64,000 nucleotides of DNA from Methanobacteriota archaeon (GCA_020697715.1 JAEHCO010000004.1:51665-115664), one strand, 5' to 3'; shown: positions 6,440 to 54,996, numbered from the stretch's first letter. The notes: generated by a model not told the origin, from the letters alone. Program-made: numbers and translations.

Positions 6440-7764
6440 CAGTTCCCCTCCTTTTTTGTCTCGGAGCCATTGACCCACTCGACATTCAGGTAGTGGGTGG
6501 AGCAGCTTATGCACGGATCATATGCTCTAACGAGCATCTCGAGGTTCAGCTCGATCTCCTTTTCAGGTCTGTCAAGGAGAGTTGGAGCGAAGGCCGCGAA
6601 ATCCTGGTTGATATTGTTGTGGTTCATATTTGTCGGAATTACACAGTTAGCCTTTACACAGTTCCCCTTGTCATCATATTCGTATTCATGGAAGAGAAGA
6701 CCTCTTGGAACCTCCACAGCACCCACACCGCGTCCTGCCTTTGGCGTGACCTTTGGTGTTGGCTCCTGCTTCATTCCACCGTCCAATAGTTCATCGATTA
6801 TCCTGACTGAATCCTCGATGGAGTGAACGAATTCAACGAATTGAGCCACATTGTTCATGAAAGGATTTGGATTAACTGGCTTGAGTCCGAACTTGTCAGC
6901 CCATTCCTTGGCCAGCGGACTAAGCTTATCGGCATTCAGGTTGAACCGGGCCAATGCTCCAACCATGTATGAGTCGCGTTTATTCTTGGTGAACTTGGCT
7001 GTGGAGTATGGAACTACGAACTCATTCACAATGGTCTTGTAAGCATCCGCATGCTGAGGCTCCTCATCGGTTGATCCGACCATTCCATCATACAGGGCAT
7101 ATTCGTCATCCGTGACCAGAGCGATATATTCCGTATCCCTCTTGAAATCCGGAAGAGCTCCTGCATTGGCAAGTATGACCTCGCCGACCGCATTGCCTGT
7201 TGGAACCATGTCCAGCAAGTTCTGTCTGATATCCTTCAGTGCATATGGAGATGGTGTCTTGTATATACCGCCTGGCACCAGATTGGTAGGATGTGTCGTC
7301 CTGCCGCATATCAGGTCGGACATCAAGTTCGCCTGCCTGTGGAGCTTGACAATAGCCAAAACCTCATCGGGGTTTGAACCGACGAGTGGCACCACGCTTC
7401 CAACTCCAAAGAGATCTGGAGCTACAAGGTATCCGACATGGAGTATGTGGCTCTGAAGATTCTCGGCATGGATAGCCAGCCTTCTAAGTTTCTGGCTCTG
7501 CTCGGATATCTCGATGTCCATCGCGGCTTCAGTGGCTTTCAATGAAGCCAGTGTGTGACCGATTGAACAGATACCACATATCCTGGACGTTATTGGAGCC
7601 AGCTGATTGTATGGCTTACCTCTGACGAAGGATTCAAAGAGACGTGGGGCCTCGGAGACCTGCCACTGTATCTTCTCAATGGTACCGTCCTTCGCATTCA
7701 GGACGATGTTTCCATGTCCCTCCACTCTTGTCAAATGCTCTACATTAATGTTTATTTCACTCAT
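6439..7764 (-). CDS. hyhL: Group 3b-type [NiFe]-hydrogenase large subunit (second copy)
   Basis: TRVEGHG, RICGICS (L1) and DPCISCSTH (L2), followed by a cleavable C-terminal extension. Confidence 0.95.
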   Translation of the reverse strand: MSEININVEHLTRVEGHGNIVLNAKDGTIEKIQWQVSEAPRLFESFVRGKPYNQLAPITSRICGICSIGHTLASLKATEAAMDIEISEQSQKLRRLAIHAENLQSHILHVGYLVAPDLFGVGSVVPLVGSNPDEVLAIVKLHRQANLMSDLICGRTTHPTNLVPGGIYKTPSPYALKDIRQNLLDMVPTGNAVGEVILANAGALPDFKRDTEYIALVTDDEYALYDGMVGSTDEEPQHADAYKTIVNEFVVPYSTAKFTKNKRDSYMVGALARFNLNADKLSPLAKEWADKFGLKPVNPNPFMNNVAQFVEFVHSIEDSVRIIDELLDGGMKQEPTPKVTPKAGRGVGAVEVPRGLLFHEYEYDDKGNCVKANCVIPTNMNHNNINQDFAAFAPTLLDRPEKEIELNLEMLVRAYDPCISCSTHYLNVEWVNGSETKKEGN

Positions 7765-15698: not shown

Positions 15699-18404
15699 TT
15701 ATTCTCGATTAAGTATATCAAAGAATTCACTGATTATGGATTGTGCAGAGTGATAAGCAGTATCTGGCTCAAGTTTTCGATTTGTTTTACCATTTTGTTC
15801 AAGAAATGCCACACTCAATGCCTGATCAGAGAGGAAATAATACAATGGCTTTGATTGAATATTTATGCGATTACTTCGTAATTCATTGTAAAACAAAGTA
15901 ATAACATCCGCCTCCATCCTCTTAATCGATATCTTGTTCTTTCCAAAAAAATTAAATTGTTTCTCAGATAATTTTAATTCATCCGATATACAAGTAACAG
16001 CTATTTTAAGAGCCTCCCAAGATGAATTAATCCGATGCTCAGGAGAATTTATTTTATTAGAAGCATCAATTAGATTGGATTCCATCAATAAAGGGCCAGA
16101 AATTTGACCCTCTTCTAATTCTATTTCCACTTCTTTTTTTTCGTCTGTTTTAAGTTTTTTTCCAGGAGGTCTTATCGGATTATGAGAGAAGCCATTGAGA
16201 AATTGTTTTGAATTTATGCTATCATATTCTAAGCCCTCTAAAAAAGATCTTACGTATTTTTTTAATCTGTATTTAGTTACATGAGTATTTTCAAATGAAC
16301 CCATAGTAATTCTTTCATCAATCCTTTCAAATATTATAGCTAGAGACCCAGAATACATTGAAAAAGGAATTTCCATGTCAATAAATTTTAAATTAAAACG
16401 ACCGCCTTTTTTAGCCTGAATTCTTTGAATAGAATTAATTAATATTTCAAAGTAGGGAGATATGTCTTCTTTTTTCCTATCAACATCCCTTTGAAAATCA
16501 TAAATAAGTTGCATCCCTTTGGCTAAGTCAGGGCTAATTTTTGATATTTTAATTGCTGCTCTCGCCCTTGCTGTTTTCAACCCCATCGGAAAAATATTTG
16601 AAACAAAGACCTCATCAATTTTTTTTACTTTACTTTCAGCAGCATGGCAAAATATGTGTTCGGCTTTGCCTAAGATTTCACCAGGTAAGCCCATACTTAC
16701 TTCACGAATATTATCGCTAGCATCTGTAGTTATTAATTCATCGGGATCTTTCCCATTAGCCTCAATTCGTTTTGAAATTAGATCCCATGTTTCTTTATTG
16801 CTAAATGGTTCAAGTTTCATCCCCAATTCAGGCCTTAAGTACCTATAAGGTTCTTCAGATAACATTTCAAGCCAATCAATAGGAATGCAGAGAAGAACCA
16901 TCCAACGTTCCTGAGCATTGTCTGTAAAGTTTTGAAGCAATTTTAAAAAATCTTTAATTATTTTTCTTTCATCTTCATCCTTGTATTTTAATCTATCAAG
17001 ATTATCCAAGAATATTACAACATTCTCGTCCTTAACATTTTCAAAAATTGTATTAAATTCTTTTTTCTCTAAAGATGTTTCTGAGTCACCGGATAGTGAT
17101 TTGGCTATTTTTTTTGCCTCAGTAATTACAAAATTATATAAATCTAATCCACTTAGAATTGGTCTAATTGTGTTTAATGTTTCTATATAAAATATTTTGC
17201 ATCCATTTGATTCTAAAACATCTTTCATAACTCGATGGAGAGTGGTTTTACCAGCTCTTCTTTCTGCAATTATTAGTTTTAACCCACCACTTTGGCTTTG
17301 TGCTACAGATAGAGTTCTAGAAATTATTGAATTCATAGAATCTGTTTTAATAAGTAGTTCTGAACCTTCACCAAGTATACGATCTGACCATGGGTTCCCA
17401 TTGAAACCCCAATAAGACATCCAATTGTCTCTATTTGAAACATCTATGACTTTATCTCTTATTTTTGTATCATCTACATCAACCATTAACTCTAATACAT
17501 CAGGAGGAGGTTTCTGTAAATTCTCCTGCAGTTCTGACGTAATATTATTGTTATCAAAACTAATAACAATTCCATTTTTTTGCAATGGGATTTTTATTAG
17601 GTCAATTTCAGAAGAAATTTTGTTAATAATCATAGCCTTTAATTTTGATGGCACACCTCCAGGCAAATTAGGAATGCGAAGACCCAGTGTAATTATCCCC
17701 TCATTAATATTTAAATATTTAGTATAATAATGAATATACCAATGTAATTTTGAATCTGGAGGGATAGCTATCAAGTCTAATTTGTTGATTATTACTCTCT
17801 CCCACGTTCGATCCAATTCATCCCCAAGACGCAATAAACATAATATTAAACCAACTCTAATCTTACCTCCTGAAATTTTTTTTATCAATGTTAAATCATT
17901 ATCTGTGACAGGCCCACTGTGTTTTTCACATATCCAAGCTATTTCTTTAGCAATATCTGCAAAAACAGTCTTGTTTAAATCAATAGTTAAAGGATTTTCT
18001 CCATTAATCAATCCAGCCGAAAGTTTGATTAAATTCGCTGAACTGATTGCGTGTTTTTTTCTTACTTCAAGAGGTTTCTCTGCTAATTCTGCAATGATTT
18101 GCCTTTTATTTACTACTCCCGAATCTTTTATGTTGAACATCATTCCAATATCATGAAGCAAGCATGAAGATGCTAAACATAGTATTTCATAATCAGAAAG
18201 TTCTTCAAACGTATCCATCTTTGATTCTAATATTTTATCAACGATTGAAATTACTCGCAATGAATGACCAATTGAATGGTCTGTGAATATCTCACTAGAT
18301 GTTCCTAATATATTTCTTAATCGAACTTCAAGATTATCTAATTCGGTTTTTTTATCTTTTTCAAGATCATTAAGAAAATTAGCCATTACCATACATTCAC
18401 CCAC
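15699..18404 (-). CDS. HD-CE-like phosphohydrolase fused to a P-loop (AAA+/STAND-like) ATPase with helical C-terminus; candidate defence gene
   Basis: TDHSIGHSLRV, LLHDIGM, LRLGDELD and HWYIH; then WGFNGNPW, AERRAGKTT (Walker A variant) and IFLDNLD (Walker B). Visibly much more AT-rich than its neighbours. Confidence 0.7.
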   Translation of the reverse strand: MGECMVMANFLNDLEKDKKTELDNLEVRLRNILGTSSEIFTDHSIGHSLRVISIVDKILESKMDTFEELSDYEILCLASSCLLHDIGMMFNIKDSGVVNKRQIIAELAEKPLEVRKKHAISSANLIKLSAGLINGENPLTIDLNKTVFADIAKEIAWICEKHSGPVTDNDLTLIKKISGGKIRVGLILCLLRLGDELDRTWERVIINKLDLIAIPPDSKLHWYIHYYTKYLNINEGIITLGLRIPNLPGGVPSKLKAMIINKISSEIDLIKIPLQKNGIVISFDNNNITSELQENLQKPPPDVLELMVDVDDTKIRDKVIDVSNRDNWMSYWGFNGNPWSDRILGEGSELLIKTDSMNSIISRTLSVAQSQSGGLKLIIAERRAGKTTLHRVMKDVLESNGCKIFYIETLNTIRPILSGLDLYNFVITEAKKIAKSLSGDSETSLEKKEFNTIFENVKDENVVIFLDNLDRLKYKDEDERKIIKDFLKLLQNFTDNAQERWMVLLCIPIDWLEMLSEEPYRYLRPELGMKLEPFSNKETWDLISKRIEANGKDPDELITTDASDNIREVSMGLPGEILGKAEHIFCHAAESKVKKIDEVFVSNIFPMGLKTARARAAIKISKISPDLAKGMQLIYDFQRDVDRKKEDISPYFEILINSIQRIQAKKGGRFNLKFIDMEIPFSMYSGSLAIIFERIDERITMGSFENTHVTKYRLKKYVRSFLEGLEYDSINSKQFLNGFSHNPIRPPGKKLKTDEKKEVEIELEEGQISGPLLMESNLIDASNKINSPEHRINSSWEALKIAVTCISDELKLSEKQFNFFGKNKISIKRMEADVITLFYNELRSNRINIQSKPLYYFLSDQALSVAFLEQNGKTNRKLEPDTAYHSAQSIISEFFDILNRE

Positions 18405-18546: not shown

Positions 18547-19215
18547 GTACCAATTCCTTTTTATATTACACAAAAGCACGCACCAGCGTTTTTTTCTTTT
18601 AAAGTTTTCTGCGCTGGTTCGGGCTCATCGAATCAAAACCAAGGTTTTGACAAAATATATGCGCTCGGGAAATATAGCCAGCTCATCTAAAAAAGAAAAA
18701 AATACAGTTAAGAATCAAACCCATTATATGTGTTTGATAAAATAATTGCGTAGGATCAATAGGTAAAAGTCGCAATTAAAAATAAGAAACTCGCCCTCGC
18801 CTGCTCGAAAACCAAGTCGAATACAAAACACCGCACCAGGAAGTTTTTCTTTAACCTCGCTGTGCTCTTAGTTCGAATCGCTATGCTTCTCGAACTAATT
18901 ATTTGCGAAGTTTACGCAAATAAGGGCTCACCTTCCAAAGAAAAAGTTCCATTCAAAAGAAACTCAGGTGAGCCTGCTCGCTCGTCATATGTTGATAATT
19001 GCTCTGAATACAAAACACCGTACCAATTCCTTTTTATATTACACAAAATCGCGCACCAGCGTTTTTTTCTTTCAGGGTTTTCTGCGCTGGTTCGGGCTCA
19101 AAAAGAAAAAAATGCCGTTAAATAAGAAACTCGCCCTCGCCTGCTCGAAAACCAAGTCGAATACAAAACACCGTACCAATTCCTTTATATATTACACAAA
19201 AGCGCGTACCAATTC
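18547..19215 (+). repeat. Three tandem units of a structured non-coding repeat element
   Basis: 53-bp identical repeat at 18781-18833 and 19121-19173. 43-bp repeat with 1 mismatch at 19006-19048 and 19159-19201. Recurrent CACCAG, T-tract, GGCTCA, A-tract, AAGAAACTC and GCCTGCTCG blocks. Confidence 0.85.
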
Positions 19216-51729: not shown

Positions 51730-52140
51730 TTAAGCTACGAAAAGCTTGACCTCCACCACCTTCTTTGCAGAGCCCATCTCGAAGACCATTTCCTTGACCT
51801 TCTCCGCCATGCCAGCAAATATCAGTATATCACAACAACTTTCCGAACTTTCGCGAAAATCCGTGTGCATGAAAGATTTGATGATATCCATGTTCTTGTG
51901 GCGGATCTCGGAGACCTCTGGCTCGGCCGCGTGATCATACAGGGCGATGATGATGCCTTCCACTCTACCGGACATCTTATCGGTATCCATCTTGGATCTC
52001 GTGAAAAGATGGATCGCATCCCGTATCAACTCAGAACGATTGGAATAGCCCATGTCCACAACAAGATCCTCAATATCGCGAGCTTGCTGGCCAGGTACAC
52101 TGAATGATAATATCTCGGTATCCTTGCCCTTGGCGGTCAT
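51730..52140 (-). CDS. nikR: NikR-like ribbon-helix-helix metalloregulator
   Basis: SFSVP...GYSNRSELIRDAI plus ACT-like C-domain with YDH...RH...MH...CC. Confidence 0.8.
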   Translation of the reverse strand: MTAKGKDTEILSFSVPGQQARDIEDLVVDMGYSNRSELIRDAIHLFTRSKMDTDKMSGRVEGIIIALYDHAAEPEVSEIRHKNMDIIKSFMHTDFRESSESCCDILIFAGMAEKVKEMVFEMGSAKKVVEVKLFVA

Positions 52141-52901: not shown

Positions 52902-52952
52902 TTTTATTCCTCATACAGTCTAAGGAAGACAGAGTATTAATAATTATTCACT

Positions 52953-52969
52953 GAAAGTTATTAACTTTC
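52953..52969. promoter_or_regulatory. Palindrome GAAAGTTA-T-TAACTTTC upstream of the ZIP-nikR operon
   Basis: Perfect 8-bp arms, about 50 bp upstream of the ZIP start. Confidence 0.5.
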
Positions 52970-53071
52970 TGCAAAATAGTAGTGAATGTTATTAATTCCA
53001 TTATAATTATAGAAAATCAAAAGAGCAACACTGCTCATCAAATAAGCAGTGTCGCACACGTTTCCAGAGTC

Positions 53072-53220
53072 CTACATGCCCCAGAATTTATCCTCGCGTT
53101 TTTTTCTTTTTACTCTCACTGCGCTGGCCAGGCTCACAAAAGAAAAAAATGCCGTTAAATAAGAAAACTCGCCTGGCATGCTCGTTCGAGGAGTCTTATC
53201 TACATGCCCCAGAATTTATC
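53072..53220 (+). mobile_element. Solo copy (53093-53199) of the 18.5-19.2 kb structured element, flanked by 21-bp direct repeats of the infB 3' end
   Basis: CTACATGCCCCAGAATTTATC at 53072-53092 and 53200-53220. The interior shares AAAAGAAAAAAATGCCGTTAAATAAGAAA with 19101-19129. Confidence 0.7.
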
Positions 53221-54996
53221 TTCTTTTCTCTTTATCGTGCATACCTGTTCCATCACATCCAGCTCATCCGGATTGAGGTCAGAACCTTTCCTCAATTCTT
53301 TGCAATGGGATGACAGGATATCAACGTACAGAACATCATCCTCATCTATCTGGCGACCGCAAGTTGCACCATCTATCGCTACAGCCACCTCGGCACCAGC
53401 TATGGCTTCCTTCAGAGATTCATCCCCATCTCTGATGCTCTTGATCTTACCGATAACACGTCCATCCTCTCTCATGAGGCGCTGGCCGATCCTTATCCGG
53501 CCAGCAAGTATCCTTACGCCGACTATCGCGGGCTTGCTCAATCGGAACAGACAATCTGGCAATAGTAGTATCTTGCCAGGATAGACCATGTCCAGACGAC
53601 TTTCAGCATCCAGCTCTCGTTTTCTAATTTCCAGCCATTCATCATATTCCTCTATCAATCGATAAACGATATCAGCCTGGATGAATTTTAGATCGGAATT
53701 GAGAAGCTCTTCCTTCGCATCTGGAAGAAGATTGACATTGAAACCGAACATCACACGCTTCAATGGGTCATTCGTAGCTGCGGCCTCTATGATATCCCTT
53801 CGGGAAACATCTCCAACCGCGGCCTTCTTTATCGGTATGCTGGCATTCTTCGCTTCGTATGCCATAGCCTCCAAGGAGCCAATGGCATCCGCCTTTATCA
53901 TGATGCCATCCTCCACAGTCTCGATGGCCAGTTGTGAGCGGAGGCTTATCTCCTCTATCAGATCATCTAAGGTATCCTTGCTCGCAACCCGTAGTGGTCC
54001 GCCAGCTATGACCCCTGTGATATCCTGGGCCACTAGTTTGACACCTGCCGCGGCAGTTACACAATCCTGAGGGTTGAACCTCTCGCGCGGATCACGTATC
54101 TCATCCAGTGCCTTTGGCTTCAGGATAGCCTTGGCCTTGGTGACCATCGGCTTGCCGGATGTACCCAATACAAGAGTGTCGCCCTTTTTGATCTGGCCTT
54201 TGTAAAGGATAACATCCATTGTTGGTCCGAGACCTTTCTCCTCCTTGATCTCCAGTATAGTACCCTCGCCAAGGCCAGTCTCGTCAGTCCATAGCTTTTT
54301 CTCAAGGAATCTCTGGGCCAGTCCGACCAACATAAGCAGGATGTCTGGAACCCCTTCGCCAGTCTTGGCACTCATCGGGATAAGTGCCAGATTTTTGGAG
54401 AAGTCCTCGATCTTATCATAACGATCTGCTGAGAATCCTTTATCATAAAGATGCCCGACAATGTTATAGAACCTCGTCTCCAGCAGAGCCTTGACATCCT
54501 TGTTCTGCTTCTTCAATGAGACAAGGAATGGCTCATTCTCATGATTGCGCCATCCAGGCATTAGATCTATCTTATTGAGGGCGATTATGAAAGGTGTTTT
54601 CAATTGCTTGAGGATATTTATGGATTCGATGGTCTGGGGCTTCAGTCCCTCATTGATATCAATGACCAGAACAGCCAGATCGGCCAGTGATCCGCCTCTT
54701 GACCTCAATGTTGTGAAAGAATGGTGACCTGGGGTGTCGATGAAAAGCAAGCCAGGAACACTGAACTTCTTTTCCCCGATAAGTGGCTTGCATATCTTGT
54801 ACACGACATCTATGGGAACCTCTGTGGCCCCGATATGCTGGGTAATGGCTCCAGCCTCTCGCGATACTACAGTGGAACCTCGGATATAATCCAGCAAGCT
54901 GGTCTTACCATGATCTACATGACCCAGCACACTGACTATGGGCTGGCGGATGATACCGCAGTCTACAATTTCTGCTTCAGATTTGGGCTTTGCCAT
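53200..54996 (-). CDS. infB: Translation initiation factor aIF5B (IF-2)
   Basis: GHVDHGKTS, DTPGH, NKID and SAKTGEG motifs; ends KFWGM. Confidence 0.97.
   Translation of the reverse strand: MAKPKSEAEIVDCGIIRQPIVSVLGHVDHGKTSLLDYIRGSTVVSREAGAITQHIGATEVPIDVVYKICKPLIGEKKFSVPGLLFIDTPGHHSFTTLRSRGGSLADLAVLVIDINEGLKPQTIESINILKQLKTPFIIALNKIDLMPGWRNHENEPFLVSLKKQNKDVKALLETRFYNIVGHLYDKGFSADRYDKIEDFSKNLALIPMSAKTGEGVPDILLMLVGLAQRFLEKKLWTDETGLGEGTILEIKEEKGLGPTMDVILYKGQIKKGDTLVLGTSGKPMVTKAKAILKPKALDEIRDPRERFNPQDCVTAAAGVKLVAQDITGVIAGGPLRVASKDTLDDLIEEISLRSQLAIETVEDGIMIKADAIGSLEAMAYEAKNASIPIKKAAVGDVSRRDIIEAAATNDPLKRVMFGFNVNLLPDAKEELLNSDLKFIQADIVYRLIEEYDEWLEIRKRELDAESRLDMVYPGKILLLPDCLFRLSKPAIVGVRILAGRIRIGQRLMREDGRVIGKIKSIRDGDESLKEAIAGAEVAVAIDGATCGRQIDEDDVLYVDILSSHCKELRKGSDLNPDELDVMEQVCTIKRKEDKFWGM

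Follow-up and report, generated by a model that had tools for sequence, protein, structure and literature searches.

The 64,000-nt stretch of archaeal DNA analysed here (referred to as the window) contains at 53096-53199 a copy of a previously undescribed family of structured, non-coding and interspersed elements of ~90-110 nt from Thermoplasmatota. Both the structure and the insertion footprint set this family apart from known small prokaryotic repeats. Judged from sequence comparison, the family-wide evidence suggests that the elements are mobile and generate long target duplications of variable length. The features are summarized in Table 1.

The solo copy lies between two exact copies (T and T') of the 21-mer CTACATGCCCCAGAATTTATC. 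No third copy occurs in the window at ≤3 mismatches, and 0 matches are expected in a shuffled window. T had been taken for the true end of aIF5B (infB) in the initial annotation, and this is borne out by the sequence as well as by the minus-strand ORF ending in KEDKFWGM-TAG. Homologs of the encoded protein from Thermoplasmata and Methanomassiliicoccales MAGs, with GTP_EFTU and IF-2 domains, confirm the identity of the gene. T' adjoins the 5' edge of the element with a gap of 2 nt. The repeat can be extended to 24 nt with one mismatch (53072-95 vs 53200-23). Moreover, GAGTC is found left of both copies (53067-71 and 53191-95), in the second case followed by an extra TTAT. Counting GAGTC, the duplication may comprise 26 nt plus a 4-nt indel.

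Based on this arrangement, the element would have inserted at the extreme 3' end of aIF5B, between this gene and a ZIP zinc-transporter gene, and would have duplicated 21-24 bp of target (possibly 26 bp with an indel). The copy on the 3' side of the element would keep aIF5B intact, and the one next to the 5' T-rich box would represent a dead duplicate. The empty site is then expected to read ...GGCATGTAG joined straight to GACTCTGGAAAC.

Table 1. Coordinates of the solo element, the array and the regions used for comparison. The + orientation of the element (T-rich box first) is a convention and implies no functional strand.
Feature	Position	Strand	Basis
Solo structured element	53096..53199	+ (T-rich box first, by definition)	covariance-model match 89.6 bits, E 8e-22
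Core common to other copies	53096-53184	+	covariance model, metagenome contigs
Copy-specific tail of the solo element	53185-53199	+	
Box A, GCGTTTTTTTCTTTTT; 5' strand of the pseudoknot-like helix, oligo-T on the + strand	53096..53111	+	complementary to 53138-53151, covariation
P1 5' strand (ACTCTC)	53112..53117	+	pairs with 53188-53194
Box B, CTGCGCTGG, family-invariant	53119..53127	+	invariant alignment columns
P2 5' strand (GGCCAGGC)	53126..53133	+	pairs with 53171-53178; ≤4 pair types per position in the family
Box C, AAAAGAAAAAAATG; 3' strand of the pseudoknot-like helix, inside the P2 loop	53138..53151	+	
Box D, AAATAAGAAAACTC; purine tract mirroring box C	53157..53170	+	run lengths match boxes A and C family-wide
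P2 3' strand and box E (GCCTGGCATGCTCG; family consensus CCTGCTCG)	53171..53184	+	
P1 3' strand (GAGGAGT)	53188..53194	+	contains GAGTC 53191-95, read from sequence
Distal repeat T', non-coding duplicate of the gene end	53072..53092	.	to 53095 with one mismatch
Proximal repeat T, last six aIF5B codons and stop	53200..53220	.	to 53223 with one mismatch
aIF5B (archaeal IF-2) gene, 598 aa	53200..54996	-	ORF; homologs; GTP_EFTU/IF-2 Pfam domains
Array unit 1, two extra hairpin modules in the loop	18586..18818	+	same module in L004, L005, L047
Array unit 2, divergent, with a different, perfectly paired P2 (GGCTCACCT/AGGTGAGCC)	18839..18992	+	34 bits, P2 and loop part
Array unit 3, compact copy	19059..19158	+	model match 88 bits
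Array spacer, 53 nt	19159..19211	.	also 18533-85, 19006-58; 20-nt version 18819-38
etfB leader comparison	L035 2700-2960 (minus strand) vs L039 3640-3900		
Conserved operator-like repeat	window 52925-53005; L001 7800-7875; L004 8375-8445		

Sites lacking the element are found in related genomes, where the initial annotation had proposed to look for them. The nearest relatives, L001-L003 (87% aIF5B identity) and L004 (84%), show a single gene end followed by unrelated sequence, and the covariance model described below gives no match past aIF5B in any of the four. These empty sites stem from relatives at 84-87% aIF5B identity and are not strictly identical alleles. An exact-protein look-up for aIF5B and a read search for an empty allele of the same species yielded no protein record and no run close to the locus. 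In L001-L004 an element is present about 2 kb away, between the FTHFS and HMA genes (one copy in L004). In the window the HMA gene follows FTHFS within 100 nt, with no element there. Presence and absence are thereby reciprocal at the aIF5B and FTHFS gene ends, two loci 3 kb apart. In the FTHFS region of L001, a truncated element comes first, then a diverged second copy of the FTHFS 3' end with the stop codon, and last a full element.

The relatives also carry, between FTHFS and the element, a gene for a 513-aa protein with a weak match to the FokI cleavage domain, together with its promoter (L001 2617-4158, L004 2734-4278). It is absent from the window between 56109 and 56201, and a SAP domain is seen only in more distant homologs. 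We considered this SAP/FokI-like nuclease as an autonomous partner of the element and rejected it, as homologs of 87-88% identity (L163, L164) have different neighbours and no element beside them. The gene thus represents a mobile cassette of its own, with a possible role in restriction or defence. On the other side of the solo element, the window and both relatives share an operator-like repeat TTAATAACTTTCAGTGAAWAATTATTAATA with a second half TTAATAAC nearby, upstream of the ZIP/ZnuA zinc-transporter genes; it probably represents the binding site of a metal regulator. A gene for a NikR-type regulator is located downstream (51730-52140).

Age is not easily read from the flanks. A 268-nt contig from a seawater metagenome comprises part of the ZIP promoter region, matches 53071-53184 (T' and element) and has a tail starting with CTACAT. 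Its changes relative to the window are concentrated in P1 and P2. If this contig represents the same locus, the insertion would be older than the separation of two populations that differ by about 14%, and youth could not be deduced from the perfect 21-mer. Otherwise, metagenome contigs at the locus contributed only foreign copies of the element. A further locus is informative with respect to the similarity of flank repeats. In the etfB leaders of two species (L035 and L039) the dead copy differs at 2/39 positions and the live gene start at 9/39, and the live etfB copy of L039 contains a patch identical to its dead copy. This pattern indicates gene conversion between the flank repeats at etfB. 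The same process may keep the two 21-mers of the window identical.

Two independent patterns and a covariance model delineated the family, which has about 90 members outside the window, in MAGs of Thermoplasmata/Methanomassiliicoccales and in metagenomes. The first pattern used 20 bases from three similar window copies (TTTTTTTCTTT-N7-11-CTGCGCTGG) and was searched in one genome per GTDB species. It matched at 45 places, 13 of which lie in Thermoplasmata or Methanomassiliicoccales MAGs, all 13 with a whole element; the bacterial matches inspected were without one. The second pattern combined boxes B, C and E and gave 117 matches in 113 metagenome stretches, about 70 of them true members. The covariance model, built from 55 copies, has 94 matches in 79 sources, 4 of them in the window. 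The family is hence small, non-coding and multi-copy in varied contexts, as MITEs are. In the window no Rfam family reached its gathering score, and only chance-level matches came up when 52950-53300 was scanned permissively (E up to 10). Collections of viral contigs, plasmids and phages contained no match to the family.

In 5' to 3' direction the element consists of box A (YT3-7CT3-5), the P1 5' strand, box B (CTGCGCTGG), the P2 5' strand, CTC and box C (A3-6GA3-7). The 3' half continues with box D (purine-rich, ...AAGAAA.CTC), the P2 3' strand, box E (CCTGCTCG) and the P1 3' strand. Some subfamilies have only T3CT3 in box A, and we thus rejected a function as mere terminator as insufficient. 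The edges of the element are set by unrelated contigs from metagenomes, whose similarity to the window begins at 53095/6 and stops at 53171-84. Between the solo copy and L006, box A is identical at 14/14 positions and the core at 63/66; only 2/9 positions of the P1 5' strand and 1/15 of the tail are common. P1 is wholly different between the two, with changes on both strands. One possibility for this fast yet compensated stem change is recombination between copies. Optional hairpin modules of ~60 nt (GTCAAAYCAAGRTTTGAC...GATGCRC...GCATC) are located in the P2 loop of some members (window 18628-18686 and 18721-18777; L004 4415-4478; L005; L047), and another type of loop module occurs in L029 and L030. 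The ~60-nt modules look like nested small elements or expansion segments. Within one genome the stems of the copies differ much, unlike in a recent MITE burst. Many copies are orthologous across MAGs, e.g. those upstream of the SRP RNA or of etfB, so that the number of independent insertions is far below 94. A role as cis-regulatory leader or riboswitch was discarded: copies occur behind stop codons, ahead of start codons and beside functionally unrelated RNA genes, and in either orientation relative to the genes.

Three helices covary among the copies, namely P1, P2 and the pairing of box A with box C. The third is pseudoknot-like and joins the T-rich 5' box with the A-rich box in the loop. 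It crosses P1 and P2, i.e. it represents either a pseudoknot topology or an alternative hairpin. In the model-fitted alignment, which leans towards structure, 87.5% of cells are paired vs 63% after shuffling, 14/19 pairs show double-sided changes, and the covariation score amounts to 0.552. Shuffling the partners lowers it to 0.133, with none of 500 shuffles as high, and sliding them leaves 0.195 at most. The alignment-free comparison of duplex energies between own and foreign partners points in the same direction for P2 (-16.6 vs -7.3 kcal/mol), box A:box C (-12.8 vs -8.3 kcal/mol) and P1 (-3.9 vs -1.95 kcal/mol). When the helix of box A and box C is anchored on its C:G pair, a fraction of 0.761 of the variable positions is paired, compared to 0.545 for shuffled partners (0/2000). 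Minimum-free-energy folding gave z-scores near 0 for either strand; the structure emerged only from the comparison between copies.

Three runs in the T- and A-rich boxes tend to be equal in length: the Ts that follow the C of box A, the As that precede the G of box C and the As that follow the G of box D. Combinations of 3/3, 4/4, 5/5 and 6/6 are observed, with rho of 0.61-0.76, correlations which subfamily kinship may inflate. Boxes C and D constitute a purine mirror repeat (53138-53167 in the solo copy, and family-wide) whose arm lengths follow box A. The mirror symmetry would fit the layout of a purine-motif triplex or H-DNA, or also an RNA triple helix, and is taken as a lead only. In P2, G:T pairs are rarer than A:C (3 vs 11), unlike in RNA helices. 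As G:T is not enriched over A:C and oligo-T runs are found on both strands, we do not assert that RNA is what folds. A folded single-stranded DNA is no less likely.

Flank repeats were evaluated against a null of mismatched flanks. A direct repeat above the 99th percentile of this null is present at 28/77 usable copies (null 1%) and none is detectable in the other 49. In 25 of the 28 cases the upstream repeat ends ≤12 nt from the 5' edge of the element, vs 10% in the null. The repeats are 15-96 nt long, and no sequence relationship links those of different loci. Taken together, the observations are most simply read as insertion accompanied by a long duplication whose length varies. The initial annotation had suggested to catalogue the flanks of other copies and had set its case against short fixed duplications as in typical MITEs; length and diversity of the repeats agree with that view. 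It had also named the lack of any empty allele together with missing duplications elsewhere as the outcome that would speak for local tandem duplication, and neither is what we find. Its proposal of a mobile core with long variable duplications thus gains family-level evidence (empty sites, 28/77), apart from its second example, which turns out to be an array period (see below). The claimed site specificity is not borne out by the targets, which have no common sequence except for a tendency to end with CC/CCC at the junction with the element's 5' edge, seemingly a weak preference or microhomology.

The duplicated sequences include functional parts of genes. In L032, L035, L039 and L086 they comprise the ribosome binding site, the ATG and the first 33 nt of an etfB-like gene, and in L027, L037 and L102 a ribC gene junction. 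The 5' 15-28 nt of the SRP RNA gene (confirmed by Rfam) and the 3' part of a tRNA-Arg gene are duplicated as well. At some loci the SRP RNA promoter is included, resulting in repeats of 65-72 nt (L157 and L105). In L112, two positions of the SRP RNA gene are occupied by members of different subfamilies, and a separate duplication accompanies each. Upstream of this gene lies a hot spot (L112 1-835 in minus-strand view; L157 4890-5400; L105; L116; L041), where one subfamily is conserved across many MAGs. A second SRP subfamily, distinguished by an additional hairpin on the 3' side (CACTGGCAT...ATGCCAGT), has its insertion point 25-28 nt inside the gene and a duplication of its own. A convergent gene ends ~≤12 nt from the 3' edge of the element in 14/67 copies, as in the window, and a co-directional gene ends at box A in 8/67. 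In the insertion reading, surviving copies would accumulate at gene boundaries, where the duplication makes the gene whole again. The stricter rule that the 3' end of the element always faces the intact gene was dropped: at least 10 events fit, and the tRNA-Arg locus of L029/L030 looks opposite.

The other copies in the window form an array at 18.5-19.2 kb with non-coding spacers of 20-53 nt. Within its unit 3, the part at 19082-19147 is 77% identical to the solo segment over 66 nt and shares an identical block of 29 nt. A 43-bp target duplication had been reported around this unit. It is really a 53-nt repeat (19006-58 vs 19159-211, 94%) with a third copy at 18533-85, and it therefore represents a tandem-array spacer and not a clean two-copy target duplication. 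The observation that both cores start with TCGCG goes back to a misalignment. GCG of the solo copy (53096-98) aligns with GCG of CCAGCG in unit 3, which directly precedes the T-run, and TCGCG of unit 3 belongs to the repeated spacer. Within the spacers at 19006-19058 and 19159-19211, a 20-nt direct repeat (ACAAAACACCGTACCAATTC / ACAAAAGCGCGTACCAATTC) surrounds CTTTWTATATTAC, which could be the trace of an older insertion or excision. Divergent from the array, a 901-aa HD-CE and AAA/ATPase_2 protein with defence-like architecture is encoded (15699-18404, minus strand).

With respect to the mechanism, we lean towards a non-autonomous element that depends on an enzyme acting in trans. This enzyme would be encoded at some distance, recognise the folded or invariant core and open the target by widely staggered nicks 15-90 bp apart, and filling of the gaps would produce the duplication. 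Such long duplications would let insertions at gene ends, gene starts, SRP RNA and tRNA genes survive. In agreement with the initial annotation, no mobilising enzyme is visible in the window: the 31 largest ORFs include no transposase, reverse transcriptase, integrase or Cas1 and encode hydrogenase/Nuo-like subunits, KaiC, HypF, FEN1, beta-oxidation enzymes, transporters, FTHFS and similar proteins. Next to other copies no mobilising gene was found either, the one candidate neighbour being the SAP/FokI-like nuclease. We further asked if the target might be guided by the variable stems. Complementarity or identity of the target to its own stems is no better than to those of foreign copies, and this idea was rejected. 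A search for the 3' tail as diverged copy of the sequence left of the target revealed no resemblance.

A more far-reaching version, which we judge unlikely, assumes that a folded single strand (hairpin and pseudoknot, or a purine triplex of boxes A, C and D) is recognised and inserted by a host or unlinked enzyme on a route of transposition not described in prokaryotes so far. Here too the nicks would be 15-90 bp apart, and essential genes (aIF5B, SRP RNA, tRNA) would survive an element placed at their very ends. A variant would be a true archaeal SINE.

Insertion might also proceed without a dedicated enzyme, by template switching at stalled replication forks, an explanation to which we assign a rather low probability. 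Hairpin, polypurine mirror repeat and T/A tracts would stall replication, and the nascent strand would switch to a copy of the element elsewhere. Copying up to the 5' edge and re-annealing 15-90 nt behind the point of departure would result in the order target-element-target. Such a process has no fixed ruler, in line with the variable duplication lengths; terminal inverted repeats are absent, and no enzyme is seen among the 31 largest ORFs of the window. The CC/CCC ends of the targets meet the C/G-rich 5' end of the element as possible microhomology, boxes C and D constitute a purine mirror repeat, a sequence type known for H-DNA formation, and copies cluster at highly transcribed genes (SRP RNA, tRNA, translation factor). 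However, the element has equal edges in many independent contexts, which sloppy copy-choice should not give. The 3' junction moreover is without microhomology, and boxes and pairing are under strong purifying selection, which points to a substrate that is recognised.

That the element is not mobile at all has a slim chance in our view. It would then be a functional element, i.e. a bidirectional terminator or insulator or an ncRNA, inherited vertically, and the flank repeats would have arisen by local duplication or unequal crossing-over. Arrays of element and spacer do exist (window 18.5-19.2 kb, L012, L016, L152, L160), different species share copies at orthologous sites (etfB, SRP RNA), oligo-T runs are located on both strands, and stop codons often adjoin the copies (the 14 and 8 of 67 mentioned above). 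This does not account for the solo locus with two targets and one element, given relatives with neither element nor second target copy. The reciprocal presence and absence at the two loci 3 kb apart and the two subfamily members in one SRP RNA gene, each with its own duplication, are likewise difficult to reconcile with strictly vertical inheritance, and the T3CT3 of some subfamilies would be a weak terminator.

Even less credit is given to an archaeal SINE-like retroposon, in which a structured minus-strand RNA ending in an A-rich tract would be reverse-transcribed at a nicked target. One expects from this model a fixed A-rich junction, a variable junction on the other side and variable duplications. 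Indeed the fixed junction carries AAAGAAAAAAA(CGC) on the minus strand, the opposite one varies (0-150 nt after box E), the duplications are variable in length and the body is strongly structured. However, either strand has a T7CT4-type run, at which archaeal RNA polymerase should stop within the element or right at its beginning. Instead of forming a tail, the A-tract is fixed in sequence and paired, the G:T and A:C counts of P2 are unlike those of RNA helices, and a reverse transcriptase is missing among the 31 largest ORFs of the window. In metatranscriptome contigs only the neighbouring SRP RNA is covered, with no copy of the element.

Finally, we give hardly any weight to an integrase scar as brought up in the initial annotation, with the 21-mers as attL and attR of a larger integrated element reduced to 107 bp. 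In its favour, integrases often target 3' ends of tRNA or protein genes, restoring them with a carried copy, and the element of L001 is separated from the real FTHFS end by a nuclease gene of 1.6 kb. Against it, the flank repeats differ from copy to copy with no common att core, and a ~100-nt unit with equal edges recurs, which is not expected of random deletion. An integrase is missing among the 31 largest ORFs of the window, and the nuclease gene occurs elsewhere without the element.

To our knowledge, IS1634 and IS1549 are the only documented prokaryotic elements with long duplications of variable length. Their direct repeats comprise 8-514 bp and lack a mechanistic explanation, and members of the family are over-represented in Euryarchaeota (PMC2266710). 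They represent the closest precedent for the present family as regards the long, variable direct repeats and the occurrence in Euryarchaeota. In contrast, they are 1.5-2 kb in size and have a (DDE) transposase gene and terminal inverted repeats, and the element described here is a non-coding unit of 100 nt without terminal inverted repeats. Its inverted repeat is internal (P1-box B-P2 with P2'-box E-P1'), with the ~16 nt of the conserved box A outside on the left, resulting in asymmetric ends.

Other small prokaryotic repeats (MITEs, Correia, RUP, ERIC, REP/BIME, PATE) resemble the family in being small, non-coding, multi-copy and intergenic with a predicted fold; often they have terminator or promoter activity and are moved in trans. 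MITEs differ by terminal inverted repeats and short fixed duplications, neither of which is found here, and REP and PATE by having no duplication, compared to 15-96 nt in the present case. The asymmetric ends and the stems covarying around invariant boxes are further differences to this group. With target-primed retroposition of SINEs and LINEs the family shares variable duplications, one fixed A-rich and one variable junction and a structured non-coding body; it differs in that no reverse transcriptase is seen among the 31 largest ORFs of the window, the oligo-T runs are internal and the A-tract is a conserved paired box instead of a tail. Integron attC sites likewise combine short conserved boxes with variable, compensating stems, whereby structure is kept as in a substrate of folded single-strand recombination. 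The present family has no GTTRRRY/RYYYAAC cores, cassette ORFs or integrase, its invariant boxes are CTGCGCTGG and CCTGCTCG, and attC recombination does not lead to a target duplication. Casposons and Cas1 produce a long target duplication by staggered attack as well. Casposon targets in archaea include the 3' ends of translation-factor and tRNA genes, and the duplication has a fixed length of 14-15 bp. CRISPR integration duplicates one repeat length, unlike the variable lengths observed here, and the terminal inverted repeats and the Cas1 and PolB genes of casposons are not seen here.

Locally, the element probably affects transcription. Archaeal RNA polymerase terminates at oligo-T. In the direction of aIF5B, 50 nt of element separate the stop codon from TTTTTTTCTTTT, the oligo-T run on the minus strand given by the complement of box C. 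The aIF5B transcript hence probably ends there, about 50 nt past the stop codon. As oligo-T is found on both strands (box A on plus, box C complement on minus), the element probably stops the polymerase from either side. It probably also insulates aIF5B from the ZIP promoter region, whose conserved operator-like repeats remain.

If the elements move as proposed, they would constitute a new class of small archaeal mobile DNA with long duplications of variable length. A substrate of 100 nt with sharply defined invariant boxes would offer an easier route to study the chemistry of such duplications, which also illustrate how an element can land inside the ends of essential genes and survive. The leftover gene starts, promoters and terminator-like T-runs would be raw material for regulation. 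The strongly covarying three-helix fold, which has no counterpart in Rfam, is a candidate motif for structural work on RNA or single-stranded DNA.

As a minor observation at the other end of the window, 192-1066 and 6812-7686 are 76% identical at a distance of 6.6 kb and belong to paralogous hydrogenase/NADH-dehydrogenase-like clusters (Oxidored_q6, NiFeSe_Hases, Complex1_51K).
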